The translations under genes were made by a program, and so were the position numbers. From NCBI GenBank assembly GCA_963814995.1, contig CAWFFF010000010.1, positions 9,960 to 73,959 of the forward strand: a DNA stretch of 64,000 nt. The letters are read 5' to 3'. Positions 1-31,349 of this stretch are shown here, one piece after another (the stretch's first letter is position 1; the number at the start of each line of letters is the position of its first letter). The notes beneath the pieces were generated by a model. It did no database searches. It was not told where the DNA came from and saw nothing but the letters and a program-made list of their open reading frames with translations. The stretch is from an uncultured Actinomycetes bacterium. GTDB taxonomy: Bacteria > Actinomycetota > Acidimicrobiia > IMCC26256 > PALSA-610.

Positions 1-142
1 ATCGAGGAGCTGCGACGCCTCGCGCCCCGTATGCGGTCCCTATGGGCGAACCTCGAACCGATCCACGACTCGGAACCCCCGCGGTCCTCTCGCGGGCCAT
101 GAGCCGCGTCGCCATTGGTCTGTCGACCAGAACCGACTGGCG

Positions 143-4529: not shown

Positions 4530-4555
4530 TGGGCGCTCCTTCGTTGGAGGTCGGT

Positions 4556-5548: not shown

Positions 5549-5569
5549 ACGCCGACCGTAGCAGCAGAA

Positions 5570-5583
5570 TGCAAACGCTTGCA
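5570..5583. promoter_or_regulatory. Putative LacI-family operator TGCAAACGCTTGCA
   Basis: Near-perfect palindrome with the central CG typical of LacI sites, lying between divergent lacI and DHDPS-like genes. Confidence 0.7.
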
Positions 5584-5614
5584 GGTACTCGTGATCCCGA
5601 CCAGGATGGGCTGA

Positions 5615-11159: not shown

Positions 11160-11228
11160 GTGAGTTGGCCTATGCCCTTCGGGTGGTTCACGGCCGAGTG
11201 ACCGATCGTTGCCAGTTGTTCGGACGCG

Positions 11229-12449: not shown

Positions 12450-12546
12450 GAGCCGACCCTTTCGAGTTGGGGACGCGACTCCGCGGAGCGGCGCAGCCGG
12501 CAGAGCGCCCGCCGGATCACCGCTGCCGTCAGTCGCCACATCGGGG

Positions 12547-13146
12547 TCATCGGCTGCTCGTGGCAGCCAGGTCGCCGATCAAGACAGGGACCAGGAACGC
12601 CTCGACCATGGCGCGCTCCGCAGCGTCGTCCGCGCCGGGCATTGCCAGCAGCGCGACGATCGACCGCAAGAGCCAACTGCCGCGCAGCTCGACGTCGCGA
12701 CTCGAGATCGGCGCATCGTCGAGGTCGTTGATGAACCCCGACGCGAGCGCGCGGAGCACCTCGGAGTCCTGACTCAACGCGACGGGCACGGCCATGTTCT
12801 GCGGCTCGAACCACACCGCGAGGAGTGGATCGCCCCGCACCGCTCGGATGCCGCTGAGGATTCGTTCGGTCAACACCTCGACGGGATCCGTCGCGCTCCG
12901 CAGCGGAAGCTCGGCCTGCGTGACGGCGATGGCCAGCGCGGCGCGGTTGACGTACGCCAAGTGAAGGGCGTGGCGGCTCTCGAAATACCGGTAGAGCGTG
13001 GCTCGCGAACAGCCGGCGTAGCGACAGACGTCGACCATCGTCGCGTGGGCGACACCGAGATCCGCGAAGGCCCGACCGGCCGCGTCGAGGAGCTCATCGA
13101 CTGCGACGCCCCCACTCGGATGACGCCCCCAACCCTTATGAGACAC
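12547..13146 (-). CDS. TetR/AcrR family regulator (Rv1255c-like)
   Basis: AGCSRATLYRYF HTH; the C-terminal LLAMPGADDAAERAMV segment resembles mycobacterial Rv1255c (from recall). Confidence 0.88.
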   Translation of the reverse strand: MSHKGWGRHPSGGVAVDELLDAAGRAFADLGVAHATMVDVCRYAGCSRATLYRYFESRHALHLAYVNRAALAIAVTQAELPLRSATDPVEVLTERILSGIRAVRGDPLLAVWFEPQNMAVPVALSQDSEVLRALASGFINDLDDAPISSRDVELRGSWLLRSIVALLAMPGADDAAERAMVEAFLVPVLIGDLAATSSR

Positions 13147-13164
13147 ATCCTCTAGTATGCCTCA
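13139..13164. promoter_or_regulatory. Putative TetR operator TGAGACA-N12-TGCCTCA
   Basis: Imperfect inverted repeat spanning the very short divergent tetR/enoyl-CoA hydratase junction. Confidence 0.5.
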
Positions 13165-13999
13165 CATGACGAGCGCGAGCAACGAGCCCGACGAGACGGT
13201 CCTGGTCCGGGTCGAAAAACCAAGGCCCCACACCACCGTGATCACCATGAACCGGCCCGAGCGGATGAACTCGATGGCTTTCGAGTTGATGGTTCCGCTC
13301 CACGACGCCTTCGCCCGAGTCGCCGACGACAACGACACCACCTGTGTCGTGCTGACCGGTGAGGGCAGGGGGTTCTGTTCCGGCGCCGACACCGGACACT
13401 CCGAACCGCCGCCGAACATCGACGGCATGACGTTGACGCGGATTGCCACTCGCGCGATGTCGATCCTCGCGGATCTCGTGCCGGCGATGCAGCGAATGCC
13501 GCAACCCGTGATCTGCGCGATCAACGGTGCCGCGATCGGCGGCGGACTCTGCCTCACCCTGGGCGCCGACATCCGGATCGCAGGCGAGTCGGCGTACTTC
13601 CGCGCCGCGGGAATCAACAACGGCCTCACCGCGACGGAACTCGGCCTGAGTTTTCTCCTGCCCCGTGCGATCGGGTCGTCGCGGGCGTTCGAGATCATGT
13701 TGTCAGGACGCGACATCGACGCGCATGAGGCCGCGAGCATGGGCCTCGTCTCACGAGTGGTCCCCGACGCGGAACTCCTCACTGCGGCACTCGACCTGGC
13801 CGACCAGATCAACGGTTGGAGCGCCCAGGGGGTCGCGTTGACGAAACGCATGATGTGGGCCGGGCTCGAAACATCGAGTCTTCGCGCCGCGATCGAGATG
13901 GAGAGTCACACGCAACTCTTCGTGCGGATGACAACCCAGAACTTCGAAGAGGCGGTGCAGGCCCGGCGCGAGAATCGCAAGCCCGACTTCAAAGACTGA
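13157..13999 (+). CDS. Enoyl-CoA hydratase/isomerase family protein
   Basis: TMNRPERMNS, GRGFCSGAD, AINGAAIGGG crotonase motifs. Confidence 0.93.
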   Translation: MPHMTSASNEPDETVLVRVEKPRPHTTVITMNRPERMNSMAFELMVPLHDAFARVADDNDTTCVVLTGEGRGFCSGADTGHSEPPPNIDGMTLTRIATRAMSILADLVPAMQRMPQPVICAINGAAIGGGLCLTLGADIRIAGESAYFRAAGINNGLTATELGLSFLLPRAIGSSRAFEIMLSGRDIDAHEAASMGLVSRVVPDAELLTAALDLADQINGWSAQGVALTKRMMWAGLETSSLRAAIEMESHTQLFVRMTTQNFEEAVQARRENRKPDFKD

Positions 14000-14003
14000 C
14001 CTA

Positions 14004-14021
14004 CCGGGAGCCGGCTCCCGG
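14004..14021. terminator. Hairpin between convergent genes
   Basis: Perfect 18-bp palindrome CCGGGAGCCGGCTCCCGG just after the hydratase stop; no U-tract. Confidence 0.45.
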
Positions 14022-14026
14022 CGGAC

Positions 14027-14440
14027 TCATGGCTGCGGCCAGGCCAAGGATTCGCGAGCGACGGCTCGTTCGATTGCCTCTACGAGCAGGTCTGGCGATC
14101 CGCGGCACGCAGCCAGGTCGGTAGGCGACAACAGCGGAACGAAGCCCTGGTCGGTATCGGCGACGACGATCGGGACGACGTTCGAGGTCGCGACTCTGAT
14201 CGCGTCTGGTTGGTCGTTGCGATGGTAGGCGTCGAATGGGACGGGCAGCCCGGCCCGGCACGCCTTCCATTCCGACCGTTCGCGTGCGAGGCCGTGCGTA
14301 ATGTCGCACAGCGCGCAGTGGGAACGGCCGAGCCGGGCACCGACCCAGTAGGTGAGCTCACCGCGCATTGTTCCGTCGGCGTCGTAGACGCCAACCAAAC
14401 GTTGGATGCGTCGACCGTGATTGTCGCTCGGCGCGTTCAC
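14027..14440 (-). CDS. Hypothetical protein
   Basis: Protein-like ORF LVGVYDADG..HCALCDITHG (CxxC) filling the intergenic gap. Confidence 0.65.
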   Translation of the reverse strand: MNAPSDNHGRRIQRLVGVYDADGTMRGELTYWVGARLGRSHCALCDITHGLARERSEWKACRAGLPVPFDAYHRNDQPDAIRVATSNVVPIVVADTDQGFVPLLSPTDLAACRGSPDLLVEAIERAVARESLAWPQP

Positions 14441-14483
14441 GTGCCGGCCGGGGCGGTTGTGCGGTTCGTTCCGGTGTCTTGTC

Positions 14484-15068
14484 TCATGAGGAAAGGATCG
14501 CAGTCCGCGTGTCCACGCGGGCGTCGGTGGTGTTCGGAGTAGACGCCAACCGAAGGGCGACCAGACCGAGCACGAAGCCGAACATCATGTGCTCGGCGGC
14601 GAAGGTAGTCCAGCCAACCATCTTCGCCATGTCCGAGATGGTCGCGCCGGAACCTGTGATGGCGGCGGCGAGAGGCAACGCGACGAAGCTCGAGACGACG
14701 AATGCTGCGAAGCCGAACGCTATGCCCGCGGGTACGAGCGTTCGCCGGGGCAGCCGCCGAGCCAGGAGCGAGAAGGCCATGCCGTACGCGGCGCCGGTCA
14801 GCATGTGGATCAGCAAACCGGCAACGGCGGGCCCCGCCGTAAACCAGAACTTCGTTCCGGCCATTGCCTTTCCGATCGAGGTCATCATGGACTTCGGCGA
14901 ACCGAGAAGCGCGGAGATGTGGAACAGCGGGGTGAAGAATCCGTGGTGCTGATACGTGATCGAGGCGACCATGGCAAACATCGCCATCGCTGCGCCGGCG
15001 ATCATTCCGCCGATCGCACCTCGCGTGACGGCGGGTTGCAGTGACTCGGATGCTCGGGCGGGTGTCAT
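14484..15068 (-). CDS. Integral membrane protein (about 4 TM segments) divergent from the ECF sigma gene
   Basis: Hydrophobic segments containing His (LLIHM, AEHMMFG); ATG at 15068 preceded by GAAAGG. Confidence 0.65.
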   Translation of the reverse strand: MTPARASESLQPAVTRGAIGGMIAGAAMAMFAMVASITYQHHGFFTPLFHISALLGSPKSMMTSIGKAMAGTKFWFTAGPAVAGLLIHMLTGAAYGMAFSLLARRLPRRTLVPAGIAFGFAAFVVSSFVALPLAAAITGSGATISDMAKMVGWTTFAAEHMMFGFVLGLVALRLASTPNTTDARVDTRTAILSS

Positions 15069-15265
15069 GGGGACCCTTTCGGTTCGAGACGACGATGCAG
15101 AACGGTCTGGAAACCCGCTCTCTCCTTGGGTTCCTTCCATCGCATGGCCCCGAAACGCCCGAGAGGGAAAATGGAAGGATTCGCGTCGTTCACCGGGTTC
15201 TGCAGGCGAGAGAGGAACGCTGAGCACGTGCCGCGTCGAGCGAGGGAGTCCGGCCGGAGACGCCG

Positions 15266-15838
15266 ATGGCCGACGATATGAAGCCCGATGTCACCGAGAA
15301 CACTCCCACTGAGGATTCGAGTCGCTTCACCGCGGTCGTCGTTCCGGAGCTCGACATGCTCCTTCGTGCTGCGAGATCGCTTTCGGACAACATCCAAGAC
15401 GCCGAGGACCTCGTCCAGGACACGCTGTGCAGAGCATTCCGCTCGCTCGATCGGTTCGACGGTCGACACCCGCGCGCGTGGCTGCTCACGATCATGCGGA
15501 ACGCCGATCACAACCGGCACCGGCGTCGCCGCCCGACGCTGCTACGACACGAAGAAACCCTGAACGCCGAGATCGATGGCCGGAACCCACCGTCGTCAAG
15601 CGCGGAGGACGTCGCGATACGGCCGATGACCGCACCCTGGGTGGCAAACGCGCTCGACGGTCTCACGCCTCGACTCCGAGCGGTGACCCACCTCGTCGAC
15701 GTCGACGGTCTCAGCTACGACGAGACCGCAGCCGTGCTCGACATCCCGGTGGGAACCGTGATGAGCCGCCTGCACCGGGCCCGCCGCCAGATGCGGACCC
15801 GTCTCGAACGCCAACCCGACTTTCGGAGCGAGCTGTGA
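15266..15838 (+). CDS. ECF sigma-70 factor
   Basis: DAEDLVQDT, AWLLTIMRN, GLSYDETAAVLDIPVGTVMSRLHRAR. Confidence 0.93.
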   Translation: MADDMKPDVTENTPTEDSSRFTAVVVPELDMLLRAARSLSDNIQDAEDLVQDTLCRAFRSLDRFDGRHPRAWLLTIMRNADHNRHRRRRPTLLRHEETLNAEIDGRNPPSSSAEDVAIRPMTAPWVANALDGLTPRLRAVTHLVDVDGLSYDETAAVLDIPVGTVMSRLHRARRQMRTRLERQPDFRSEL

Positions 15839-16125
15839 TGAGACCGCGAGACGCACTCGACATGTTCCGCCGCAAGGGCGGCGCCCGTTGCATCGAGATC
15901 GGGAGACTCGTGCAGAGCTATCTCGACGGAACACTCGACGCCGACGCAACCGCGAACGTCGCGCGACACCTCGACGCGTGCCGCAGATGCGGTCTGGCCA
16001 CGGACGACTACCGGCGAATCAAGTCCGCACTCAACCGGTCCGTCGAACCGCTGCCGGCGGAATCGCTGCAACGACTGCGCGCCTTTGCCGCCAATCTCGC
16101 GGCAGAAGACGCGTACGAAGAGTGA
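15838..16125 (+). CDS. Zinc-binding anti-sigma factor (zf-HC2/ZAS)
   Basis: C..YLDG..HLDACRRC (HxxxCxxC); TGATG overlap with the sigma gene. Confidence 0.85.
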   Translation: MRPRDALDMFRRKGGARCIEIGRLVQSYLDGTLDADATANVARHLDACRRCGLATDDYRRIKSALNRSVEPLPAESLQRLRAFAANLAAEDAYEE

Positions 16126-17136
16126 GCGAAACTGAACCGTTCACGTTCGCGGTGGAAGCGACGCGCAGTCAGCATTCCGGTCATGCTGAGTGTGACGGCG
16201 ATCGGAGTCGCATGCTTTCCGCTGATCGTTGTCGGCGCCGTCGTCGCCGACGTCGTCCGCCTTCGGGTTCGGCTCCCTTCCGTGCGGGTCGCGGCGTTCT
16301 TGATGCAGTACGCGCTCAACGACAGTGCGGAAATCCTCCTCGCACCGATCTTGTGGATCGCGGCCGGATTCGGAACACGACTCGCCGCTCCCCCATCCGT
16401 GCGCCGCCACGAACGGCTCCAGGCGTGGTCGATCGCCGTGCTCGCTCGTCGTGCCGAACGTCTTCTCGGGATCCGCGTCGACCTCGACGAGCAGACCGCT
16501 TCGGCACTCGAGCCGGGGCCAGTCATCGTGTTGTGTCGTCACGTCAACATCGTCGACGCGTCGCTGCCCGCGCTGCTCTACCAACGTCTCGGGTACCACA
16601 CGAGAGGCGTGATCATGGCGGAACTCCTTGCAGATCCCGGCTTCGACCTCATCTACGCCCGGACCGGTTCCGTCTTCATCGCGAGAGACAACGGTCCCGA
16701 CGCCCGTTCACTCGTCGCCGGACTCGGCAACGGAGCCGACTCCCGCACCGCTCTCGTCATCTTTCCGGAGGGTCGTCTCTTCCGTCCCGACCGACGACAA
16801 CGGTCGCTCGCACGGCTCCGTGAACGCGATCCCGACCGGGCCCGAAGACTCGAAGGCACAACTCACGTCGTTCCTCCTCGGCCCGGTGGTGTCTTTGCAC
16901 TCCTCGACGCATGTCCCGACGCAGACGTCGTCTTCATGGCCCACAGCGGACTCGACCACTACCCGACCTTTCGCGAGCTCGCCCGTTCGGCGCCGTTCCG
17001 GGACCCGGTGCGAGTGACCGCATGGCGCGTCGCCGCCGCCGACGTCCCAACCGGGAATGACAAGCGGATGGCATGGCTCGACGATCACTGGTGCCGGGTC
17101 GACGCCTGGGTCGACGCTCAATGGGCACTGTCATGA
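16122..17136 (+). CDS. PlsC-like acyltransferase
   Basis: RHVNIVD (HxxxxD), IFPEG and PPRPGG motifs; start uncertain (16122-16183). Confidence 0.8.
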
Positions 17137-17909
17137 ATTCACGTCTGCCCGGCTGGGGTGACTACCTCGACTCGTTTCACACCCAACGGCCCGGCATCAC
17201 CGAGGACGTTCTCGCACGGTGCACGAACTGCGAGGGCGCCAGCCCGTATGCATGGCTCACCGACTGCGTCGAACCCGAAGGGCGCGTGTTGGATCTCGCG
17301 TGCGGGAGCGGTCCGACCCGGGCGCTCGTCGCGGGCACCTGGCTGGGCGTCGATCGTTCGGCCGCGGAGCTTCACCGAGCGCGACAACACGGCCGCACAC
17401 CGCTCGTACGCGCCGACATGACCGGCGTCCCGATTCGGGACTGCAGCGTCGACGCGGTGCTGTGCTCAATGGCACTGATGCTCGTCGACCCTTGCTCCTC
17501 CGGGCTCGGCGAGATCCATCGGATCCTCGTGCCGTCAGGACAGGTCCGGATCCTGCTCCCAACCGCGACACCGCTCACCCTCTCCGACCGGTGGCGCTAC
17601 ATCCGGCTGTTCGTCACGACGAGCGCGTCAATCCGGTTCCCGCCAACACCGCTGCGGCGACACGCCGCTGAGGTCCTCGCCGCGGCAGGGCTCGTCGTCG
17701 AGTCGGATCAGTCCGAACGCTTCGCCTATCCGATCGACACGCACGAGGACGCTGACCTCTTCGTCGACTCCTGGTACCAGCCGACCAAGCGCTTGACGGA
17801 CATCGAACCGAGGCCACGGCGCGGCGGATCGTTCGCGCGCGGGAGCATCGGCGTCCCGTTGCGTCGCATCATCGCGCGCAAATCGGACGGGCGCCTCGTT
17901 TCCTCTTGA
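17133..17909 (+). CDS. Class I SAM-dependent methyltransferase
   Basis: VLDLACGSG motif I, GVDRS, CSMALML; ATGA overlap. Confidence 0.85.
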   Translation: MNSRLPGWGDYLDSFHTQRPGITEDVLARCTNCEGASPYAWLTDCVEPEGRVLDLACGSGPTRALVAGTWLGVDRSAAELHRARQHGRTPLVRADMTGVPIRDCSVDAVLCSMALMLVDPCSSGLGEIHRILVPSGQVRILLPTATPLTLSDRWRYIRLFVTTSASIRFPPTPLRRHAAEVLAAAGLVVESDQSERFAYPIDTHEDADLFVDSWYQPTKRLTDIEPRPRRGGSFARGSIGVPLRRIIARKSDGRLVSS

Positions 17910-17977
17910 GCGGATCCCAACCGATCGGCGTCGCGAGCTCAATCCGAGAACGAACATCGAAGCGGATCCGAGGTTTC

Positions 17978-18049
17978 TTGTCGCGTTCGGCCGTCGCTAC
18001 GCGCTATTCAGGAGTATGGGGCACACGCGACGCGATCGAGCACCGCCGA
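17978..18049 (+). repeat. Conserved unit-end block (second copy at 31104-31175)
   Basis: TTGTCGCGTTCGGCCGTCGCT(A/C)CGCGCTATTCA matches at 32/33 nt, followed by GTATGGG and CGAGC.CCGCCGA in both copies. Confidence 0.75.
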
Positions 18050-18070
18050 TTCCGGGCATTCGCGTTCGCA

Positions 18071-18309
18071 TTCTTAGGTAGTCGCTTAGGCGCACAACAC
18101 GAGACTGACGAACAGTCCCTCTGATCAGGCCTTACGAGTCGGGCTGCCGGGATTCGAACCCGGGACCTCTTGACCCCCAGTTACCGTCCGAACGTCTCGC
18201 TCCGTCTCACTCGGTCTCACGCTCCCCCACCGACCAGGCGCTTCGCGAAGGCTTCCCGAGCCGATGTCTCACTACGTCTCGCTACGTTTCTTAGGTAAGA
18301 CCTTAGGTA
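18071..18309. repeat. attP-like junction A: left arm, tRNA-Pro 3' half (18139-18181), right arm
   Basis: Colinear similarity to 27289-27532 over ~240 bp and to 31207-31317; paired TTAGG repeats at both ends. Confidence 0.9.
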
Positions 18310-18489
18310 GGGCGACGACCCGTGGGTGACCCCTCGAGTTCAGATTTTCGACCTGGTCTTCGAGGCGTTTCCTGTACTACTTCATCGACTCGAAGAGGGG
18401 CTCGACAGTCGTTGACCGCTCGGACAGGTCGACCTGTTCTCGGGGATGGACGTGGAACGGATCGAAAGTGATCTTCACCGGCTGTTCCT

Positions 18490-21206
18490 CTACGTGACGC
18501 GTGCGGATCGAGACGCCCTTATTGCGAGGTCGTGTTGGGCGCACCAGTCACACAGTCGGCGATGATCCGTGCCGGGGTGGTCGTTGTGGTCGCGTTTGAT
18601 TTCTTGTCCGTACGGGCAATCGCAGTGGTCGTGATACACGGGGTCGTCGGGGTCGGTGTCGGTGTGAAAGGGAGACACCCTGGGAGGCGAACCGACCTTC
18701 GGTTGTTCGTCAGCCCGCGCACCACGTGAGGGGACAGACGTGTTCTTGTCCTCCGTGGTGTCGCGCTTCGCGTGGTCGAGGATTCGGTAGGCGAGAAGTT
18801 TCACGCGGTCGTTCACGAGGAACCAGGCGAGGGCGTAGGCCCATACGAATGCGGCCCAGCCCCAACCGAGGGGGGTCATGAAGAGGCCGTAGACCGCGAT
18901 CAACGTGGCGATGATCTGGGTTCCGACCACGGCGATGAAGAGCACCTGCGCGGGCCGTGGCTTCGACCAGAAGGGGCCGCGTGTGCGGGTCAGGAAGATG
19001 GTCAGGTGTCCCGCGACCGAGAGCTTCAGGTACATCAGCGTCTGGACGTGCGCGCGGTCGAGATTGAAGACGCGCTCGCCGAGGTAGAACAAGCCGAAGG
19101 CGGAGACGACTCCGATGACGCCGAGCACGGTGGAGATCCCGAGCACCAGGCGCATGTTCCAGGCCTCGGGCTCGTTCCGGTAACGCACGTTGTCATAGGC
19201 GATGGACAGGATCGCGGCGTCGTTGAGCAGCGCGATCATCACGATCATGATCGCGGTCACCGGGTAGAAGTTGAAGACGAGGATCGCGAGTGTCATGAAC
19301 AGCAGGACGCGCAGCGTCTCGGCGATGCGGTAGATCGCGTAGCTGTTCATCCGTTGGAAGATCTTGCGGCTCTCCTTGATCGCGTCGATGATCACCGACA
19401 GTCCCGACGTCGTCAGCACCATGTCGGCGGCCGCGCGCGGCGTCGGTGGCGCCCGACACGGCGATACCGCAGTCGGCTTTCTTCAGCGCGGGGGCATCGT
19501 TCACACCGTCGCCGGTCATGCCGACGATGTGGCCTCGCTGCTGCAGGACATCGACGATGTGGAACTTGTGCTCGGGGAACACCTGGGCGAACCCGTCGGC
19601 ACGCTCGACGGATTCGCCGACGAGTTCCGTCTCGTCCTGCTTGACATCACCCAAGCCGGCGGCGTCGAGAATGTCGGCACCCAACCCGACCTTCTTCGCG
19701 GTCTCCTTCGCGATCGCGAGTGCATCACCGGTCACCATCTTGACCGTCACGCCCATATGGCCCGCAGTGCCGATCGTCGCCGCGGCGTCATCGCGCGGCG
19801 GATCGAACAAAGGCAAGACACCGAGGAACCGCCAGTCGCCGTCGCCGTCGGCGCGAGCGACGCCCAGCGATCGAAACCCGCGGGCAGCGAAGTCGTTGAC
19901 CGCCTTGTCGACCGCCGGCTTCACCGGCGTGGAGTCGCCGACGAGCGCGAGGATCACCTGCGGCGCGCCTTTGCTGACCTTGAACGTCGTTCCGTCCGCA
20001 GCATTGACCGATGCCTCGGTGCGTTTGTGTACGGGGTCGAACGGTTGAAAGTGGACCACCTGATAGGTCTGCAGTGCAGCGTCGTCCGGCAGGCCGCCGA
20101 GGACAGCCAAGTCGATCGGGTCGTCGTTTTCCGCTCGCGACGCGAGGGCGGCGTCGAGGATCACCTCCGCGACGTCGACATCGTCGACGGTGAAGGGGTC
20201 ACCGAGCGTCAGCTTGTTCTGGGTCAGCGTGCCGGTCTTGTCCGCACACAACACGTCGACACCCGCCAGCTCCTCGATCGCCACCAGCCGGCTCACGATC
20301 GCCTGCTTCTTCGCGAGGATGCGGGCGCCGACCGCCATCGTCACCGACAGCACGGTCGGCATCGCCACCGGGATCGCGGCGACGGTCAGCACCAACGCGA
20401 ACTGCAACGTGGTGAGAATCGGGTCGCCGCGCACAATCGCGACGACGATGATCACCGCGACCAGCGCGACCGCGAGAACAATGAGATAGTTCCCGATCCT
20501 CAACACCGCGCGCTGGAAATGGCTCACAGTGTGCGCCTCTTGCACCAACTCCGCGGTCTTGCCGAAATAGGTGCTCGCCCCGGTCGCGTAGACCAGTGCA
20601 CCGATTTCACCTTGACGGATGATCGATCCCGAAAACACCGCTTCGCCAGAGTGGCGAGTGGCGGGCAACGACTCCCCGGTCAGCGCGGATTGATCCACAT
20701 GCACCGGGTCACCAGACAACAGCCGCGCGTCGGCCGGCACGATGTCACCCGATCGGAGGCGGATGACATCGCCGGGTACCAACTCACGCGCCGCCGGCGT
20801 CACCCACTTCCCATCGCGCCTCACCCGCGCCTTGATCGCCAACTTGGCCTTCAGGGCCTCAATCGCATTCCCGGCTTGACGTTCCTCCCAAAACCCGACC
20901 CCCGCGTTCGACACCAGCAGCACCAAGATGATGAAGAAGTCGGGCCAGTGCCGCGCCCCCGCCGACAGGAGCACCGCACCTTCGATCATCCACGGGATCG
21001 GACCCCAGAAATACGTGAGGAACTTCAGCAGCGCGTTGGCCTTGCTGTTCCTCGATCTCGTTCGGCCCGTACTGCGCCAACCGCTTCTGCGCCTCAGCCT
21101 GACTCAATCCGTCCGGCGACGACCCCAGCCGCTTCTCGACGTCGGCGATCGGAAGTGATTTCAGATCGTCATTCGCATCGAGTTGGTCCGGGGCCGGCGC
21201 ACTCAT
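18490..21206 (-). CDS. Plasma-membrane proton-efflux P-type ATPase (type IIIA, PMA1-like); frameshifts near 21040 and 19430
   Basis: YGPNEIEE, DQSALTGES, IPVAMPTVLSVTMAVGA, DKTGTLT, TGDGVNDAPALKKAD, IFQRMNSYAIYRIAET. Confidence 0.92.
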
Positions 21207-22168
21207 CCCGGCGGGAGATCCGCGACCCAGGAGGGCGATGCCGACCGGGGCGTTGACGGTTGGGTCGCTTCGATGATCGTGCCGCGTGTTCCCGCGAGCA
21301 GGTCGGCTGCTTCGTCGAGACTGCCGATCATGGCTGGTCGGCCGGTGGCGTCCACGAAGCGGCAGGCGGCATCGATCTTGGGGCCCATCGACCCCGCCGG
21401 GAACACGTTGGCGCGCATCGCCTCCACGGTGGTGCGCCCGATGGGACGGGCGGCGGCGGTACCGAAGTCGGTTTCGACGTTGTCGACATCGGTGAGGATC
21501 AGCAGGGCATCGGCGTCGAGGTCGCGGGCGAGCAACGCGGCGGTGCGGTCCTTGTCGACCACCGCCTCCACTCCTCGAAGCCGCCCGTTCGCGGCGCGGA
21601 CGACCGGGATTCCGCCACCACCGGCACAGATGACGATGGCGCAGTCAGCGAGAAGCGTACGGATCGTTGCCAGTTCGACGATGGAGAGCGGTTCCGGAGA
21701 GGCGACCACCCGGCGCCATTGGTCACCGTCGAGTCGGACCTGCCAGCCCCGCAGCCTGGCCAGGCGGCGGCCTTCCGCCTCGCTGTACTGCGGCCCCACG
21801 AACTTGGTCGGACTCAGAAACGCCGGGTCGTCCGCGGCGACCTGTGTCTGACACACGATGCTCACGACCTGGCGGCCGGGCAGGGCGTTCTCGAACGATT
21901 GGAGGAGGAAGTAGCCGATCATCCCTTGGGTTTGCGCGCCGAGCACGTCGAGCGGATACGGATGCGGCAGGACCGGATCGGAGGCGCTTTCGTTGGCGAG
22001 CAGCCCGACTTGGGGCCCGTTGCCGTGGGTGAGCACCAAGTCGTGATCGAACGCGAGCGGGGCCAGAGCGTTGACGGCCACATCGACGTGCTTCTCTTGG
22101 ATCTCAGCGAGCGGTACCTCCCCTCGCTCCAGTAGAGCGTTGCCGCCGACGGCTACCACGAGCCGCAT
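21203..22168 (-). CDS. arcC: Carbamate kinase
   Basis: VVAVGGNALL, THGNGPQVG, PTKFVGP, GGGGIPV, GSMGPK. Confidence 0.95.
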   Translation of the reverse strand: MRLVVAVGGNALLERGEVPLAEIQEKHVDVAVNALAPLAFDHDLVLTHGNGPQVGLLANESASDPVLPHPYPLDVLGAQTQGMIGYFLLQSFENALPGRQVVSIVCQTQVAADDPAFLSPTKFVGPQYSEAEGRRLARLRGWQVRLDGDQWRRVVASPEPLSIVELATIRTLLADCAIVICAGGGGIPVVRAANGRLRGVEAVVDKDRTAALLARDLDADALLILTDVDNVETDFGTAAARPIGRTTVEAMRANVFPAGSMGPKIDAACRFVDATGRPAMIGSLDEAADLLAGTRGTIIEATQPSTPRSASPSWVADLPPG

Positions 22169-22169
22169 C

Positions 22170-23200
<1,031 letters not shown>

Positions 23201-23204
<4 letters not shown>

Positions 23205-24422
23205 GCCGGATCCCGTTCGATCGGGCAGGTCATGCACCGGGGCCCGCCTCGACCGCGGCCGAGCTCGCTGCCGCCGATGTCGATGACCTCGACGCCGTGC
23301 TTGCGCAGCATGGTGTTGGTGGCGACGTTGCGTTCGTAACCCATGACAACACCGGGGGCCACCGCGAGGAAGTTGGTGCCGTCGTCCCACTGCTCGCGTT
23401 CCGCGGCCCGTACGTCCTCGTCGGTGGTCAAGATGGTGATCTCGGGGACCTCGAGGATCTCGGCCAAGGTGTCCCACAGGCAGTGGTTACGCGAGATCGA
23501 CAGCTCGCCCCGATTCTCGCCCGGGGAGATCGTCCAGCTGCGCAGGTGGCGGTCGAAGTAGGGGTAGAGGATGAAGGTGCCCACATCGACCATCGACATG
23601 ACGGTGTCGAGGTGCATGAACGCGTGACTGTGCGGCAGTTCGATGGCAACGACCTTGTTTGCTTGGCCGCTCTCGAACAGGGCGTGGGCCACTGATTCGA
23701 TGCCCATTGGTGTCGTGCGTTCCCCCATCCCGATCAGGACCGCTCCGTGACCGATGACATGCACGTCGCCGCCCTCGATGGTGGCCGGCTGATAGGTGAT
23801 GTCCTCTCCCCCGTAGTAGGTGACGAAGTCGGCACCGGTGAAGAGCGGATGGTGCTGGTAGATGGCCCGGGTGTGCAGAGATTCGCGTTGGCGGGCCGGC
23901 ATGGCCATGGGGTTGATGGTCACTCCGCCGTAGATCCAGCACGAGTTGTCTCGCTGGAAGAGATGGTTTGGTAGCGGGGGGAGAATGAAGTCGTCGGCCT
24001 TGAGCATGTTCCACTTCAGGCTGTGCGCGTGCAGCGGGTGTAGATCCGCTTTGAGGATCCCGCCGATGAGGGCCTCGGCCAGCGCCTTGGAGTCCTGGTC
24101 CTCGAACAGGCGTCGCACCGGGTCGACCAGTGACCGCCCGAGAATCTGCGGAGTACAGAGTCGGTCCAGCACGAACGTACGACCGGCAGGAAGCTCGAGC
24201 GTCTCGGCGAGAAGTTGGCCGTAGTAGTGGACGGCGACGCCCTGCATGCGCAGCGCTTCGGCGAACGCGTCGTGCTCCTCCTTGGCCTTTGAGGCCCACA
24301 CCACGTCGTCGAAGAGGAGCGACTGGATGTTCTCCGGGGTGAGCCGGGACAACTCCAGACCCCGGTCGATGCACGATGGCCTGGCGGAGCCGGCCGACCT
24401 CGGATCCTACGTTGAATGTCAT
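23201..24422 (-). CDS. arcA: Arginine deiminase; frameshift near 24355
   Basis: [49 protein letters not shown]. Confidence 0.95.
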
Positions 24423-25957
24423 CTTCTTCCCTCTCTGCGAACGGTGTCTGATGCCGCGTTCCTTCTGTGGTCAGCGAGCGTCGGACAGCGTTGAGCGACG
24501 GCTGGGGTGTCGGGTTGTCGATCGGTTCGGGGGTCAGCCCGAGACGTTGGCGGCGGGCGTTCAAGAACGCGTACAGGACGAGCCCGGCGAGGATCACGAC
24601 CAGGGCCTGGTAGACGACCTGGTAACCGGAGGCGAAGGTCACCCACATCGAGAACAGCACGCTCGTCCCGGCGACCGTCAGGTCGCGAGCCAAGAGCCAG
24701 CCCGACACGCGGCGACGGCGCGACACCAGGTAGGTGAGCTGCGCGATCGCCGACATGAAGTACGGGATGGCCACCGTCACCACGGTCAGGTCGACCAGGT
24801 ACGTGAAGATCGTCAGCCCGGAACTCGACTCGTAACGCCACAACATGAGCAGCGACGGCAGGATCGTTCCGACCACGATGCCGAACCAGGCCGTGCCCTG
24901 GCGGTCGACCCAGGCGAACGGCTTGGGGAACAGGCCGTCCTGGGCGATGGCCCTCGACGTTTCGGTGACAATGAGCGTCCAACCGTTGAGCGCCCCGATA
25001 CCCGAGATGACCGCCACCGCGGCGATGAACTTCGGCGCCCACGACGAGTGCGGGAACATCGTCCTGAAGGCGTCCACGAACGGTGAACCCGTCTCGACCA
25101 GGGTGCTATGCGCGACCAGGCCCATGACCGCCGCGGTCACCAGAACGTAGAGAACAGCACTGAGTGCAGTGCCGATCAGCGAAGCGCGTCCGACGTTGAC
25201 GCCGGGATCCTTCACTCGCTTGGCCGTCACCGCCGCGGCCTCGACACCGATGAAGGAGAACAGCGCCACCCCGGCCGCGATACCAATACCGCTGTACAGA
25301 CTGCCCCCGGAAGCGTTGAACGCGCCGAAGTTGCCGCTGCTGACGAAGAACCATCCGACCACGCCGACGAACAGCAGGGGCAGGAACTTGAGTACGACAG
25401 TGACGTTCTGAAACCACGCCATCTGGCGTACGCCGGCGAGGTTGACGGCCGCCGGCACCCACAAGTCCGACCAGGGCGATACCCCAGTTCTCCAAGCCGC
25501 TCGGATGCGTGAAGCCGAACAGGGCGTCGACATAGAACACCCAAGAAGACACGATGGCCGCGTTGCCGGCCCAGGATTGGATCCAGTAGCACCATCCGAC
25601 CAGGTAGCCCGCGAAATCACCGAACTCATGGCGGGAGTACGCGTACAGACCGCCGTCGCTGTTGGGAACTCGCTTCGTGAGCTGGCCGAACAAAACCGCC
25701 AACAGCATCGCCCCCACCGCGATCACTGCCAGAACCAGGATTCCCATCGTCCCCGCCCCGGCCAACACCGCCGGCATCGTGAACACACCGGTCCCGACGA
25801 TGCTGCCGACGACCAGGCCCGTCGCCGAGGGCAGGCCCAAGACGTTGGCCTTCTGCTCGTTGCGAGCCGACATCGGCGGGTCCGGAGGCCCACCAGAACC
25901 AGGGGGTTTAGTCGGACTCGCGGACGGAGGGGATGCAGCGATCGTCATACGACTCAC
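24419..25957 (-). CDS. arcD: APC family amino acid permease (ArcD-like arginine/ornithine antiporter); frameshifts near 25465 and in the tail
   Basis: GSIVGTGVF, GGLYAY, FSFIGVEAA, GALNGW, AQDGLFP; first gene of the arc operon; 3' end approximate. Confidence 0.8.
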
Positions 25958-26145
25958 CTTCGTTCATTGAGGGATCGCGGTCGGCCGCGCTTCTCGTCGG
26001 GCTAGTTCTAAGGAATCGAGCGAACAGCTTGCAGAGTCCTTGGACCCATGACCTCAGGCATAACGCGCCTCAGGAAAAGGGACCGATCGCGCGGTGAACT
26101 GGATTCCGAGCCTGTGCCCGGGACCGGAATCCTTCCGCGGCGTGT

Positions 26146-26961
26146 TCACGTCGCCTTCCGATGTGTCACTGACGTTCGGCTTGGCTCGCAAGTCGTCCCT
26201 TCGTCGCCAACGCCGGCAACGAAGACCGTCGAGTGGTCTCGCCCGGCGGTGACCGCCCGAAGGTTCGCGGGCGACGGCGTCTCGTCGGATCGACGCGCGC
26301 GTAAGAAGGCCTGCAGCACGCGCTGTTCGACGACGTGAGGCAAGTCGTCGCCGTCGACGCGCACAAGAAGTGTGTGATGGTCAAGCAGTCTGAGGGCCGG
26401 GAGCGTCTCGGCCTCGTAGATGGTCAGTCGGTCGCGAGCGACGCGGGGATCGTCATCGGTGCGGCCGCGGGCGGCCAAGCGGGCGAGCGCGATGTCCATT
26501 GGCACGATGATCTCGATCGTGACGTTCGGGACGAGGGCGTCTCGCTCGAACAACGCCTCAGCTTGCACAACCGTCCGCGGAAAACCGTCGAGGACGTAGC
26601 CGCTGGTATCGAGATTGGATTCCACGATCGCGACGATCAATCCCGTCGGCACCAATCGCCCGGACCGGACAAGACGTTCCACCGCGCGACCGAGCGAAGA
26701 TTGGATCGCGATCGCGTCTCGCAACAGATCACCCGTCGACAAATGCTGCACGCCGAGACGGCCTGCCAACCGGGTCCCTTGAGTCCCTTTTCCCGCCCCC
26801 GGACACCCGGCAATCAACACTCGCGGCGCGGATTGCCGAACCCGTGGCTCGTCGCCGGCAACGCATGGCTCACCCGCCCAGCCACCAGATCGTAGGTCGT
26901 GCCCGATATCGGCCGCTGCACTCAACGAGCGAAGCGACGAAGTCGCCGGACCTTGTCCCAT
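26146..26961 (-). CDS. Adenylate kinase family protein (short, LID-less form)
   Basis: GCPGAGKGTQ P-loop, HLSTGDLLR, LDGFPR, RGRTDD; the true start is probably near 26820-26860. Confidence 0.85.
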   Translation of the reverse strand: MGQGPATSSLRSLSAAADIGHDLRSGGWAGEPCVAGDEPRVRQSAPRVLIAGCPGAGKGTQGTRLAGRLGVQHLSTGDLLRDAIAIQSSLGRAVERLVRSGRLVPTGLIVAIVESNLDTSGYVLDGFPRTVVQAEALFERDALVPNVTIEIIVPMDIALARLAARGRTDDDPRVARDRLTIYEAETLPALRLLDHHTLLVRVDGDDLPHVVEQRVLQAFLRARRSDETPSPANLRAVTAGRDHSTVFVAGVGDEGTTCEPSRTSVTHRKAT

Positions 26962-27288
26962 CGTGGTCGAGCCTCCGCAGCGATCAGCCGCATGAATGGG
27001 GCTCGGTCACCGGGGTCCGGGGCGCCGATCCGATATCTCCGAATCCAGACTGACTGTAGGACAACGAACGTCGTTCGTCGAGTCCGGAGGTGGCTCGGGG
27101 TCTGCTCATCGATACCGACGCTCACGGTCATGCCTGGCGGGGCGGTCATCGGGAGTCGACTGGCGTCGAGCTGCGCCGCGCGCTTGGTGCGGTCAGTCCC
27201 GGCGCAGGTATCCGAGCGCGCTCGGGCCTCGAGTTCGAGCATGCCGCTGACATCGGGTGAGCGATGTCCATGCGGCGAATCGTTCCAG

Positions 27289-27532
27289 TTCTTAGGTGAC
27301 GCCCGCCTTAGGCGCCACAACTCGAGACCGACGAACAGTCCCTCTGGCCGGGCCTTACGAGTCGGGCTGGCGGGATTCGAACCCGCGACCTCTTGACCCC
27401 CAGTTACCGCCCAAACGTCCCGCTCCGTCTCAGTACGTCTCACGCTCCCCCGCCGATCAGGTATTTCGCGAAGGCTCCCCGAGCCGTTGTCTCACTACGT
27501 CTCGCTACGTTTCTTAGGTAAAACCTTAGGTA
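27289..27532. repeat. attP-like junction B: left arm, tRNA-Pro 3' half (27362-27404), right arm
   Basis: 43-nt core identical to 31275-31317; arms colinear with junction A. Confidence 0.9.
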
Positions 27533-27546
27533 CTCGCCCACTTGCA

Positions 27547-27570
27547 GCCGATAATGATATCGTTATCGGC
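27547..27570. promoter_or_regulatory. Putative TA operator GCCGATAATGATATCGTTATCGGC
   Basis: 24-bp near-perfect palindrome directly abutting the toxin ATG (probably a leaderless transcript). Confidence 0.7.
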
Positions 27571-27966
27571 ATGGCCGGACGCCGATGGACGGTCGAGTTC
27601 CATCCGAAGTGCGAGCGATGGGCACAAGCACTTCCGCAAGACGACGCCGAAGCTCTGCTCGCCGCGATTCGCGTTCTTCGCGATCACGGACCGAGTCTTG
27701 GACGACCGCTCGTCGACACCGTGAAAGCCAGCAAGCACCCGAACATGAAGGAGCTCCGCCCAGGTTCAACCGGCCGTACCGAGATTCGCGCGCTGTTCGC
27801 CTTCGACAAGAAGCGCATGGCGATCCTTTTGGTCGGCGGCGACAAGAGCCGCAACTGGTCGGGCTGGTACGAAGCGAACATCCCGATCGCAGACGAACGG
27901 TTCGAGAAGCATCAAGCCACAATCGGTGAAACAAGCGCCAAGGCGCGAAAGAGGAAACGAAGATGA
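27571..27966 (+). CDS. Type II TA toxin, RelE/ParE (HigB/Gp49-like)
   Basis: GPSLGRPLVDT, NMKELRP, EIRALFAFD, LLVGGDKS, WYEANIPIAD. Confidence 0.9.
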   Translation: MAGRRWTVEFHPKCERWAQALPQDDAEALLAAIRVLRDHGPSLGRPLVDTVKASKHPNMKELRPGSTGRTEIRALFAFDKKRMAILLVGGDKSRNWSGWYEANIPIADERFEKHQATIGETSAKARKRKRR

Positions 27967-28368
27967 GCATGAAGACGTGGGAGAAGAAGGTCCTCGCCAA
28001 GCCCGACGCGCGAGCACACGTTGCCGAGATTGAGGACGAGCTGCGCCTTGCCGCGGGGCTGACACTTCTTCGAGAGCAAGCGGGCTTGTCGCAGCGCGAT
28101 CCTCGCGAAGCGACTCGGCGTATCGCAACCGCGCATCGCGAAGATCGAACGTTCGAAGAACGTGACCGTCGAACTTCTGGAGCAATACGTGGAAGCGCTC
28201 GGAGGACATCTCCAGGTAACGGTCGTCAAGGGCAACAAGCGAACGACGTTGATCTCCCCCACCCCGCACGCGAAATCAACGAAGTCAGCAAGGCCGGTCG
28301 CCAAGAACCCGCCGGCGAAGAAAGCCGTACGACGAACGCCGACGAAACGAGCACGTCAATCCGCGTAA
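27963..28368 (+). CDS. XRE-HTH antitoxin (HigA-like) with basic C-terminal tail; frameshift near 28100
   Basis: LREQAGLSQ then GVSQPRIAKIE..LEQYVEALGG; ATGA overlap with the toxin. Confidence 0.82.
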
Positions 28369-28499
28369 GGACGCCCATTGACAGAGCGGCCCTCTCGCCG
28401 TCCACGTCTTCACTCGACGTTCTGGACTCTTAATGGTCTAGCGGCCACCACCGATCGAAACTCCCATGTGTGTCAAGGGGCGTTTCGGCGTTGCTGGTA

Positions 28500-28962
28500 T
28501 GAGGGGTCCCCGTTGAGTGGTCGCACCATTGGGCGGTGGCCCACAGGTGACTCCCGATGCAGTGGGATCATCGCCGGATATCGCTCGCGCCACTGCTTGG
28601 CGAAGTCCTCGAGGTGCGCTTCCGCGCTTCGACCGTCGGCGCTTCGTAGATCTTGCGCATGCCGGTGTTGCCACCTCGGGACGGTCTGCGGATCGAACGT
28701 CGCGTTCCGGTCGCGCGGGACACGCAGCTCAACGTCACCGATCTCGGTCGTCACTGTTTTCGGTGTGCTGCCGTTGCGCGAGTTCACTGACCCGCGGCCG
28801 GCCGGGTCGTAAGTGTCGTAACCAAGATGATCCGCGCGCTCGACCTCGAGACCCGCCTGCAACACACTTCGGACCATCGCCGTCAACAGTCCGTGGTCGC
28901 CCGTGAGTTCCGCACCTTCGGACCGCGCACGCGCGACGAGCTGTTCCGCCCAATCGCGCATC
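28500..28962 (-). pseudogene. IS256-family transposase remnant, internally deleted
   Basis: EQLVARARSEG.ELTG, HLGY, NSRNGSTPKTVTTEIGDVELRVPRDRNATFDP joined directly to C-terminal AHLEDFAKQWRERYP. Confidence 0.85.
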
Positions 28963-28992
28963 GCCGCCGTGTCACCCGCCACGATCGGCACG

Positions 28993-29688
28993 CTACGCGC
29001 CGCGGGCGTGCGTCCCCTTTCGCCAGAGTCTGAGCCCGATAGCGCCGATGAGCAGGTCCTGGAGGGTGATGACCACGAACGCGCCGACCGATGCGAACCC
29101 GGCGCCGAGCACCACCGGGGTGACGACGAGCAACTGGAAGATGCCGAGCGTGATCGGAAGGGTCGACCATGGTCGTGGCCAGGTTCGGGCTCGGAGCGCG
29201 TCGAGCCCGAACAGGATGAGGCCGATGTCGGCCAGAAGCATGCCGATGCCAAACACCGAACTGGCGGCGTTCGCGGCGTTGGAGTCGATCGCCTGCGTGG
29301 CCACAAACGCCAGAACGAGTTCGCCGGGGATCGTCACGACGAACCCGAGCACGGCCAGTCCGCCACCGTAACGAGCGCGCCAACCGGCCCCCGCCATCTT
29401 GGATCCGGCGAGCGCCACGATGCCGGCGGCCATCAGTGCCTGGGTCAGGGCGAAGAAGACCTGACCGAGTCGGAAGGCGTTGGCGGATAGCGGATAGCTG
29501 ACGGTGTCGGAAGCGACAACCGGATCCGCGCCGAGGATGAGGGCGTTGCCGATGATGGCGAGTGCGGCGCCGACGCATGCTGCGGCGCCGCCCAATGGAA
29601 TCAGGCCGCCCGTCTTGAGCCCCCGGACTTCCCCTTCACGAGTCGTGACCCTGGGGACGTCATCACGGTGCACATCGGTCGGCTGCAT
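28993..29688 (-). CDS. Multi-pass membrane protein of unknown function
   Basis: About six hydrophobic segments; ATG at 29688 with GGAAGAAAG upstream; divergent from tetR. Confidence 0.7.
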   Translation of the reverse strand: MQPTDVHRDDVPRVTTREGEVRGLKTGGLIPLGGAAACVGAALAIIGNALILGADPVVASDTVSYPLSANAFRLGQVFFALTQALMAAGIVALAGSKMAGAGWRARYGGGLAVLGFVVTIPGELVLAFVATQAIDSNAANAASSVFGIGMLLADIGLILFGLDALRARTWPRPWSTLPITLGIFQLLVVTPVVLGAGFASVGAFVVITLQDLLIGAIGLRLWRKGTHARGA

Positions 29689-29720
29689 CAGCTTTCTTCC
29701 CTTCGTCGGCGAACTCGATG

Positions 29721-29756
29721 TCACTAGAGTGTGTCACTAGTGTATGACTCCAGTAA
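29721..29756. promoter_or_regulatory. Nested inverted repeat, probable TetR operator
   Basis: ACTAGAGT-N4-CACTAGTG-N4-ACTCCAGT symmetric about 29738/29739. Confidence 0.6.
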
Positions 29757-29757
29757 A

Positions 29758-30433
29758 ATGAACGCCGTGGTGGAGCCTGTCAAGGACGAGCCCCGGGGCG
29801 GTGCGCTCACTCGGAAGGAACGTGCGTTGGCCACGCGCCGACGCATGATGGAGGCGGCGTACCGAGAGTTCAGCCGCAGGGGATACGCAAGAACGACCGT
29901 CGACGCGGTCGCCGCACAGGCCGGGGTCGCGGTCCAGACCGTGTATTTCACGTTCCACACGAAGGCCGAGTTGCTCCAAGCGGCGTACGAGCACGCGGTA
30001 CTAGGGCCGGAACCGGTGCCCCCGCACCTCAGCGGCTGGTGGCGAGCTGCCGAGTCAGCGCCCGACGTGACCACCGCGCTCGAGGTACCTGGTGGACGGC
30101 AACATCGAGGTCTTCGAGCGCGCCGCCCCCCTGGTCTGGGCCGTGCACGGCGACGAGGACGCCCGACCGACCTACGAGTTCAACGAGGGCCTGCGTCGCG
30201 ACGGCACGGAAGTGATGCTGTCGATCCTGGTCGCGAAACACGATCTCCGTTCGGGCCTGACCGATCGGCAGGGACGAGACATCATGTTGACGATCCTGGG
30301 CCCACTCACGTTCGCGATGCTCACACAGGAGCTCGGTTGGACGTCCGAGGAGTACGGCTCCTGGGCGAGGCAGGCGCTCGGCCGCGAGATCTTCGGCGTG
30401 GCGGACGAGACCTCGTCGCCGTCACCAGACTGA
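29758..30433 (+). CDS. TetR/AcrR family regulator; frameshift near 30090
   Basis: VAAQAGVAVQTVYFTFHTKAELL HTH; the C-terminal domain continues in ORF 30092..30433. Confidence 0.85.
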
Positions 30434-30509
30434 CCGCCCGGTGAGGTCGTGCCGTCTCTGCGTCGCGAACCGGGCCAAGGCCTTCATCGCTGTTACGGCG
30501 GGCCTGCCC

Positions 30510-30690
30510 AGGAGTCCCCTGACGGGAAGACCACCGACCAGCGACGACTGAAGGTCGCGAACATCGTCGACGAGCACACGCGCGAGGCGCTCACCATGCG
30601 CGTTGGCCGGCATTGCCCCGCCGATGACCTGCTCGTCGAGCTCGACCGACTCGACCAGAGCTGGGGCGCGCCGAGCTCGCTTGACCGGCG
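30510..30690 (+). pseudogene. IS3-family transposase (integrase core) fragment
   Basis: RRLKVANIVDEHTREAL..LDRL..WGAP. Confidence 0.7.
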
Positions 30691-31103
30691 GCCAGACCGG
30701 CACCGAGGCAGGCGACTTCTGGTTCGACGCCGAGACCGGCTTGCCGCTGCGCAACCGGCGGGTCGTCACGGTGCACAGCGGTTCGTCGATCGGCGGGGTG
30801 ACCTACGACGAGAAAGGGAGCTTCGTTCTCGTGTCGATGACGCCGACCAGGTAACGCCGTTGCGCACAATGTGAACGATTGGATCCTGTTCAGCGACCGG
30901 ACGCTGCGGGACTCGAAGTTCGTGTGGCCGCCTTTACCCCGCGGCCGGTGGCCGACGCCTGTGGCGGCGAGCACGCGCCTTCGGCAGGTCGGCGGTAAGG
31001 CTTCGCTCGTCAGAACGCGCGTCCCCGAACACCGCCGCGGGCGTGTCCCATATCGCCGGCTATACGACAAGGCGAGAAGAACGTTGCCCATCCCCGAACT
31101 TCT

Positions 31104-31274
31104 TTGTCGCGTTCGGCCGTCGCTCCGCGCTATTCATGGGTATGGGAACCATTCGATGCGAACGAGCGCCGCCGACACCACGGCACGTGCGGCGCCGGCG
31201 TTTCAATTCTTAGGTAGCGACTTAGGCGCACAATCCGAGACTGACAAACAATCCCTCTGACCAGGCCTTACGAG
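31104..31274. repeat. Unit-end block plus left arm (31207-31274) adjoining the tRNA 3' end (attL-like)
   Basis: TTCTTAGGTAGCGACTTAGGCGCACAATCCGAGACTGAC..CCCTCTGACCAGGCCTTACGAG matches the left arms of junctions A and B. Confidence 0.85.
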
Positions 31275-31349
31275 TCGGGCTGGCGGGATTCGAACCCGCG
31301 ACCTCTTGACCCCCAGTCAAGCGCGCTAACCGAACTGCGCTACAGCCCG
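31275..31349 (-). tRNA. tRNA-Pro (GGG)
   Basis: CGGGCTGTAGCGCAGTTCGGTTAGCGCGCTTGACTGGGGGTCAAGAGGTCGCGGGTTCGAATCCCGCCAGCCCGA folds as a cloverleaf; CCA not encoded. Confidence 0.97.

Follow-up and report, generated by a model that had tools for sequence, protein, structure and literature searches.

Integrase-less units with attP-like junctions stacked at tRNA-Pro(GGG) in Acidimicrobiia, and a rare candidate helper integrase

The array at tRNA-Pro(GGG) and its junctions

The 64,000-nucleotide (nt) stretch analysed here, referred to below as the window, is G000:C10:9960-73959 of an assembled genome, G000, of 4.85 Mb that is 71.6% complete, and it holds a tandem array of cargo-bearing units stacked at a tRNA-Pro(GGG) gene. 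This gene is intact and is the sole tRNA that ARAGORN finds in the window. Its 3' half (44 nt) is repeated at 27361, where 44 of 44 positions are identical, and at 18138 (42 of 44), where the two mismatches are a paired G-C swap in the T stem. An initial annotation of this DNA had described three direct copies of the tRNA 3' half accompanied by both a left and a right arm, and this description is borne out by the features below, in which coordinates without a contig name are those of the window.

31274-31349, minus strand: intact tRNA-Pro(GGG), the target
31202-31269: left arm of unit 1 (attL side), with TTAGGT at 31210-31215 and TTAGGC at 31222-31227 as predicted integrase arm sites
31095-31170, plus strand: promoter block of the excisionase type, with its start codon at 31142, joined directly to the arm and probably the scar of an xis-int deletion
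27404-31316: unit 1 (3.9 kb), with a Gp49/HTH (helix-turn-helix) toxin-antitoxin-like pair, a Mutator-family transposase fragment, a membrane protein, a TetR regulator and further fragments
27487-28367, plus strand: pair formed by a Gp49 (PF05973) gene and an HTH_3 gene with a frameshift, immediately inward of the right arm
27284-27532: junction 1 (attP-like), comprising left arm (27284-27356), tRNA 3' half (27361-27404) and right arm (27404-27532)
18181-27403: unit 2 (9.2 kb), with adenylate kinase, amino-acid permease, arginine deiminase, ornithine carbamoyltransferase and P-type ATPase, several genes being frameshifted
17970-18310: junction 2 (attP-like), comprising promoter block (17970-18044, start codon 18016), left arm (18066-18133) and right arm (18181-18310)
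18138-18181: tRNA 3' half of junction 2, with the alternative T-stem allele
1-18180: right part of unit 3, with metabolic, sigma/anti-sigma and transport cargo; the whole unit is 27.9 kb and starts at C10:261, outside the window
C10:40-390: full junction outside the window
C11:320156-320378, 318015-318254, 301733-301815 and 298766-298799: four progressively broken junctions

Lambda-type attP sites are recognised by a three-domain, arm-binding tyrosine integrase and carry paired direct-repeat arm sites on both sides. In the array, the switch point lies at the anticodon loop, where the tRNA reads CCCCCAG/TCAAG and the junctions read CCCCCAG/TTACC (the slash marks the switch), and both arms carry a TTAGG(T/C) direct-repeat pair spaced by 12 nt, except in the left arm at 27292, where the spacing is 16 nt. 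In addition, the right arm contains (C/T)GTCTC(A/G) repeats at 10-nt spacing, four of which are found in junction 1 together with TTAGGT at 27514 and 27526, and the promoter block seen in junction 2 is absent from junction 1. The 9-mer TTCTTAGGT occurs eight times in the 4.85-Mb genome, in every case at these junctions. As judged by sequence, these are lambda-type features, namely a core inside the target with a fixed switch point, paired arm repeats on both sides and directionality-factor repeats, which supports the earlier view of the junctions as attP-like. The likeness to lambda-type attP thus comprises a core in the tRNA anticodon loop, paired arm sites and 10-bp-spaced repeats on one arm, while the difference is that the sites sit in elements without an integrase and that binding to them is predicted.

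The junction copies are 82-90% alike, with E values down to 1e-83, and both chance and a collapsed repeat are excluded because of this degree of divergence and significance. An assembly artefact of another kind might be suspected from the incomplete genome, the many frameshifted cargo genes and a contig break beside one junction; its probability is negligible, as the copies differ by 10-18%, the same architecture is present in many other assemblies and in six metagenome contigs with the arm motif, and one public contig matches 31106-31282 without a difference.

The array extends beyond the window, where five more full or partial junctions are found. The join between contigs C11 and C10 is drawn because a homologue of the unit 1 end spans the end of C11 and the beginning of C10, and the junctions together would then form a single array of seven units spanning ~67 kb. 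The GC content of the array is 65.9%, as compared with 71.1% for the rest of the window. Decay of the junctions increases with distance from the tRNA, a gradient that supports the proposal that the newest unit lies nearest the tRNA, and two T-stem alleles alternate along the array.

No recombinase was detected in unit 1, unit 2 or the right part of unit 3 by profile scans, and the array contains none of the genome's 44 PF00589, 28 PF12728, 2 PF07508 and 2 PF00239 matches. Profiles specific to the integrase clade described below and to its Xis gave a best E of 0.28 over the array and revealed no remnant, so that the decayed integrases inside each unit that the initial annotation had named as evidence against itself are not seen. 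Its claim of integrase-free units stands for integrase and excisionase, and is corrected in that the 3.9-kb unit does contain insertion-sequence (IS) debris and the Gp49/HTH pair. It had also held that units 1 and 2 share no genes, and among the 54 open reading frames (ORFs) submitted they have no Pfam family in common; unit 2 includes an amino-acid-kinase-family gene, likely a carbamate kinase. No relaxase or conjugation gene was found among the Pfam-scanned ORFs, which are a subset scanned with no profile aimed at relaxases. Many cargo genes at 18490-28367 and elsewhere in the array (ATPase, permease, HTH) are frame-split, through either sequencing error or decay. Outside the array, the genome's best PF00589 match lies at 48497-49033, is syntenic in four of five relatives checked and is likely a housekeeping Xer recombinase.

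Relatives of the array and a candidate helper integrase

A search with the junction had been suggested as a check, and across relatives it revealed conserved arms and variable cargo. The right arm is matched in 17 of 62 other genomes of the family, a finding that answers the possibility that such arms are missing from all relatives, and in 13 of 20 within the genus. Among 201 genomes of other families of the order there is a single weak match, which falls in seemingly ordinary coding-like sequence with no other arm or core. The record titles of related loci read Acidimicrobiia. Neither the clade integrase nor the arm motif was found in a viral collection, and a literature search, which left most subscription papers and supplements outside its coverage, returned no report of such arrays in Acidimicrobiia.

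Twenty arm-bounded units, defined as having both a right and a left arm within the same contig, were counted in 13 genomes among loci fetched by junction match, after one artefact row of negative length had been dropped, and 19 of them lack both int and xis; for units with full arms alone, 10 of 11 have neither integrase nor Xis. Such units are called empty below. Some counts rest in part on the unpublished genome G042, namely the 17 right-arm genomes, the two clade-bearing genomes of the genus, the five clade loci and the query alignment row; the 20 units and the tests of arm-site conservation were made from other genomes. The units are multi-gene mosaics of 1-36 kb, and their cargo differs among relatives and is common in patches, with identical unit openings at different array positions. 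In G049 and G031, too, there are units that begin with the Gp49/HTH_3 pair found at the opening of unit 1. Toxin-antitoxin genes of five families (Gp49/HTH, TacA/GNAT, AbiEii, PIN and PemK) lie <=1.1 kb from 10 of 38 right arms, a count for which 91 of 149 candidate frames were submitted with no background control, and in which one of the ten is a tRNA-Leu end. Insertion-split junctions occur at L251 (G055:C7:1986800-1987950) and L084 (G057:C4:5588-7013), the insert in G055 being IS3-family-like by eye.

The only unit with an integrase among the 20 is G009:C42, where a 396-amino-acid tyrosine integrase lies beside tRNA-Pro(GGG). In this element, the int start codon is 12 nt from a TTAGGT pair, xis is convergent and the right arm is 27 kb away. 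No conjugation genes were found among the 20 ORFs scanned for a transfer module in this parent island, in which int, xis and cargo were seen. Four related integrases with 45-57% identity are found at tRNA-Leu(GAG) or tRNA-Leu(TAG), each with a TTAGG pair upstream of its gene, and a fifth tRNA-Leu relative, likewise with a TTAGG pair, is present in G054; the far end of the tRNA-Leu element in G009:C3 has the same right-arm design. Further integrases (P0007, P0008, P0009, P0017 and P0019) are 67-73% identical. Overall, the TTAGG pair occurs in 5/5 tRNA-sited clade integrase loci, and the left-arm profile in 0/38 other integrase loci. The clade is small (~20 clusters among the candidates scored), matches PF00589 and has invariant catalytic residues (R221, K259, R341, H364 and Y374). 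In a model of the integrase, the N-terminal part is predicted to run strand-strand-strand-helix, and the whole appears to match the Tn1549 and lambda integrases; no Pfam arm-binding match was obtained for P0001. Taken with lambda anatomy, the position of the pairs suggests that clade integrases bind TTAGG. The Xis profile had one of its four rows in the wrong frame and still recovered the true clade Xis genes. Two observations on the tRNA-Leu elements may be added. Upstream of xis in two autonomous elements (L134 and L135/L106) are long runs of a 12-13-nt tandem repeat (TGCAGACC..), possibly a replication or transfer site, and in the tRNA-Leu(TAG) clade element at L153:13181-15776 the ORFs look phage-like by eye and have no Pfam match.

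With regard to where this enzyme resides, the initial annotation had proposed one shared integrase per genome, in the manner of an integron, and that proposal did not hold. When all candidates were scored, the clade integrase was found in 2 of 21 genomes of the genus, both times at tRNA-Leu(GAG), and in G000, at 71.6% completeness, neither a clade integrase nor a clade Xis was found, the best match being 42% identical and without the clade N-terminus. A single resident integrase serving the array in each genome could still be sought among the 44 tyrosine-recombinase matches of G000, and in an incomplete genome its gene could be missing or another integrase could cross-react; it is nevertheless very improbable, as the cognate clade was not found in 19 of the 21 genus genomes, which include array-bearing ones rated 95-99% complete (G040, G049, G051 and G058). 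Another candidate for the helper, an integrase resident throughout the genus, was rejected, since it is a different clade that the arms follow. G057, G049 and G009:C61 have integrases next to their junctions; these resemble the cognate enzyme at 31-32%, have different right-hand sequence alongside, and were assigned to other elements that use the same tRNA.

Origin and movement of the empty units

A promoter-like block with a start codon precedes the clade xis in two autonomous tRNA-Leu elements, and it lies ahead of an HTH excisionase-like gene in 7 of 12 further matches in G000. Most empty units have this block, followed by a few codons, leading directly into the left arm, with the block pointing across the junction. 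Because most empty units in this way fuse an excisionase-type promoter directly to the int arm, they are likely xis-int deletion derivatives, which is the simplest reading. When the block-plus-start pattern was searched for in 264 genomes, each of the 27 matches had an att arm at its end, the Pro arm in 26 cases and a tRNA-Arg(CCT) arm in the remaining case, and none lay in a full xis. The stereotyped promoter-arm end is common to species and genera, with promoter-to-arm spacings that fall into several classes of 124-186 nt. A hairpin or small RNA between the start codon and the arm was unsupported (mean fold z of -0.1 and -0.6 in 28 ends), and a conserved 20-residue peptide from the retained start codon was rejected, the frame to the arm being kept only in some length classes. 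At L102 (G052:C3, ~10610-10760), the block and start codon lie near tRNA-Pro(GGG) without TTAGG arms, possibly next to a third arm type.

The reading that is favoured here, with moderate confidence, is that integrase-less units, which have kept both arms and likely lost xis-int, are excised and re-integrated by a rare and transient helper island whose integrase would act in trans on a lone unit, or perhaps from a temporary neighbour in tandem. In this mechanism, the helper integrase would bind the TTAGG pairs and the helper Xis the GTCTC repeats, and a unit would be excised between one core and the next to give a circle, in which right arm, core and left arm would together form a full attP. 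The circle would then re-enter at the anticodon loop, restore the tRNA with its own 3' half and push older units away, each re-entry creating an attP-like junction. Subsequent departure of the helper would leave most genomes with locked cargo and no enzyme, while old junctions would decay, units would merge and exchange cargo, and retention may be aided by the toxin-antitoxin pairs next to the right arm.

Several observations are consistent with movement of empty units. The end of unit 1 is 98.3% identical over 637 nt, a stretch that takes in the promoter block, to G047:C148, the core gene beside the tRNA being 83% identical, and cargo patches are 92-96% identical with G050 and G059 at a core identity of ~85%. 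Of the 17 genomes in which the position next to the tRNA could be read, 12 have an empty left arm there; the other five tRNA-adjacent slots hold one cognate integrase, two other elements and, in two cases, no arm. The first site of the left arm is conserved above its surroundings among 13 ends belonging to one fusion class (0.97 vs 0.84, permutation p 0.003), with p values in these tests being optimistic because the motifs were defined from the same alignments. In a tree of left ends, used for near-identical groups alone, 13 of 25 inner branches were open.

A different account of the same ends is that of classical cis-mobilisable elements (CIMEs), in which units arrived autonomous or in tandem, lost xis-int in place and move only as passengers, a route that has been published (PMC5704250 and PMC7563491). 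What separates the two accounts is whether recombination can act on an empty unit standing alone. Accretion of this kind fits the decay of junctions with distance from the tRNA, the several promoter-to-arm spacings would allow for several deletions, and a tandem helper that left later would also leave an empty unit at the tRNA. In addition, the junction at G009:C1 (L218, ~4960-5250) keeps the first clade-integrase codons beside a degraded arm, and because of this stump it is evident that ordinary decay also occurs. It is nonetheless rather unlikely that this route explains the array, in that the same fusion ends are found in several species and at several array positions, no unit contains int or xis debris, and a pure passenger needs the right arm alone, yet site 1 of the left arm is conserved. 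Moreover, empty units are tRNA-proximal in 12 of 17 genomes, as opposed to CIMEs, which are reported in PMC7563491 to be always most distal.

Besides the G009:C1 stump and the optimism of the p values, a number of points weigh against re-integration by a helper. For the second site of the left arm, conservation does not exceed that of the surroundings (0.82 vs 0.84, p 0.65), and p was 0.54 in an initial version of the site test that had a wrongly set motif and one row too many. No whole unit is near-identical in two genomes, and sharing is patchy. The one helper found that targets tRNA-Pro has a right arm whose likeness to the common type is only 78%, for which reason the direct parent is taken to be unsampled. 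Neither an excised circle, an empty site nor a reordered array was seen, the best public DNA runs sharing <=13% of words and being uninformative; 4 of the 20 runs were assembled over the junctions and yielded neither a joint there nor a bridging contig, a result without bearing on excision. The fetched loci were chosen by junction match, and the counts drawn from them are not an unbiased census; G000 itself is only 71.6% complete. Arms from one genome also resemble each other more, on average, than arms from different genomes (0.87 vs 0.82 for the right arm), which implies that local copying or gene conversion also acts.

This last point bears on whether the main role of the 240-bp junctions is to provide homology for RecA-type exchange, with cargo turned over without an integrase. 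Mosaic cargo and the failure to find the cognate integrase in most array-bearing genomes would agree with such exchange as well; it is improbable as the main process, as each site of the arms has its counterpart in a living integrase clade, the motifs are better conserved than the spacers, the switch point stays at the anticodon loop throughout and the array is polar. Returning to helper-driven re-integration, a broader version of it would have a standard vector end, in which the excisionase promoter and initial codons are joined to the integrase arm, spreading between species as self-standing integrase-free units, trans-mobilised by a rare helper and building ordered 60-kb arrays, in a class resembling miniature inverted-repeat transposable elements (MITEs). 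This extension is tentative and more doubtful than the mechanism itself.

Relation to known systems and a second array

Integrons hold an ordered array in which the newest unit enters at a fixed site and units are without their own recombinase, with attI and attC as recombination sites. The present array is like them in its order, in the newest unit at a fixed site and in the lack of a recombinase in the units, and unlike them in that no resident integrase was found, the junctions appear to have a double-strand arm-and-core anatomy in place of attI and attC, the units are multi-gene and 1-36 kb long, and the target is a tRNA. The integron analogy of the initial annotation fails on the resident integrase and on the size and gene content of the units, and the array is better described as a variant of CIMEs in which empty units dominate and hold the newest slot. 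The units carry both attachment sites and no recombination gene, as the structural definition of a CIME has it.

CIMEs are deletion derivatives that keep their att sites and move only in cis, as defined in PMC7563491, and both CIMEs and tandem accretion have been described in streptococci (PMC7563491 and PMC5704250). The units here resemble the elements portrayed there in retaining attL and attR, lacking recombination genes, carrying cargo, stacking at a tRNA 3' end and being able to outnumber their helpers. They depart from that portrayal in that empty units make up 19 of 20 and are usually tRNA-proximal, and in their stereotyped promoter-arm end across species and genera; the sampled parent also differs in having int, xis and cargo with no conjugation genes among the ORFs scanned.

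Other tandem or helper-dependent systems share single aspects of this array. The ssrA arrays of Dehalococcoides use a serine integrase and a 20-bp repeat, and 15 islands are without an integration module and 16 keep it (PMC3146451); they are similar in forming long tandem arrays at one RNA gene with module-less islands, and different in that the array here has lambda-type arms of ~70 and ~130 bp and almost no unit with an integrase. Tycheposons are tRNA-targeted cargo elements with partial tRNAs between them, in which, as in the present array, new elements push old ones inward, whereas by definition they have their own integrase (10.1101/2020.12.28.424599), which units here lack. The pdif modules of Acinetobacter, with 28-bp host Xer sites on plasmids (PMC7315799), and the microcin H47 island, with imperfect repeats and an unidentified host function (PMC3191183), are likewise cargo bounded by recombination sites and served by an enzyme from outside, which here would be a rare island integrase. 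Islands that borrow conjugation through the transfer origin oriT are described in a further report (10.64898/2026.01.13.699239).

One array of this type amounts to ~67 kb of accessory metabolism, and such arrays are easily missed because island finders key on integrases. The case bears on whether integrase-less islands are dead-end riders, as in the CIME view, or a self-propagating non-autonomous class. It is unusually testable, with cis sites as well as a candidate cognate integrase and Xis identified, and the arm set common to Pro- and Leu-targeting integrases provides a natural test of arm versus core specificity.

A second array of the same design is present in G000 at C5:846900-873360, where it lies at the 5' half of tRNA-Arg(CCT) and has different arms (GGCCGT repeats). 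The same system is found at L254/L259/L260 (G059:C2:1335-1782 and 26869-27200). The ends of the tRNA-Arg(CCT) arrays show the same promoter block fused to the arm, two of them with a similar 'xRAPP' start. Because the promoter-plus-start module is also fused to the arms of this second integrase system, in both G000 and G059, mobilisation may require it in cis, and the arrangement may be a general one among these bacteria. Finally, a leaderless promoter-like motif (TGTCGCG...CGCGC..ATTC, then a start codon) is found ahead of excisionase-like genes in several unrelated islands of G000, for example at C5:183335, C13:43149, C7:88620 and C2:89483, which suggests a shared host or stress regulator.

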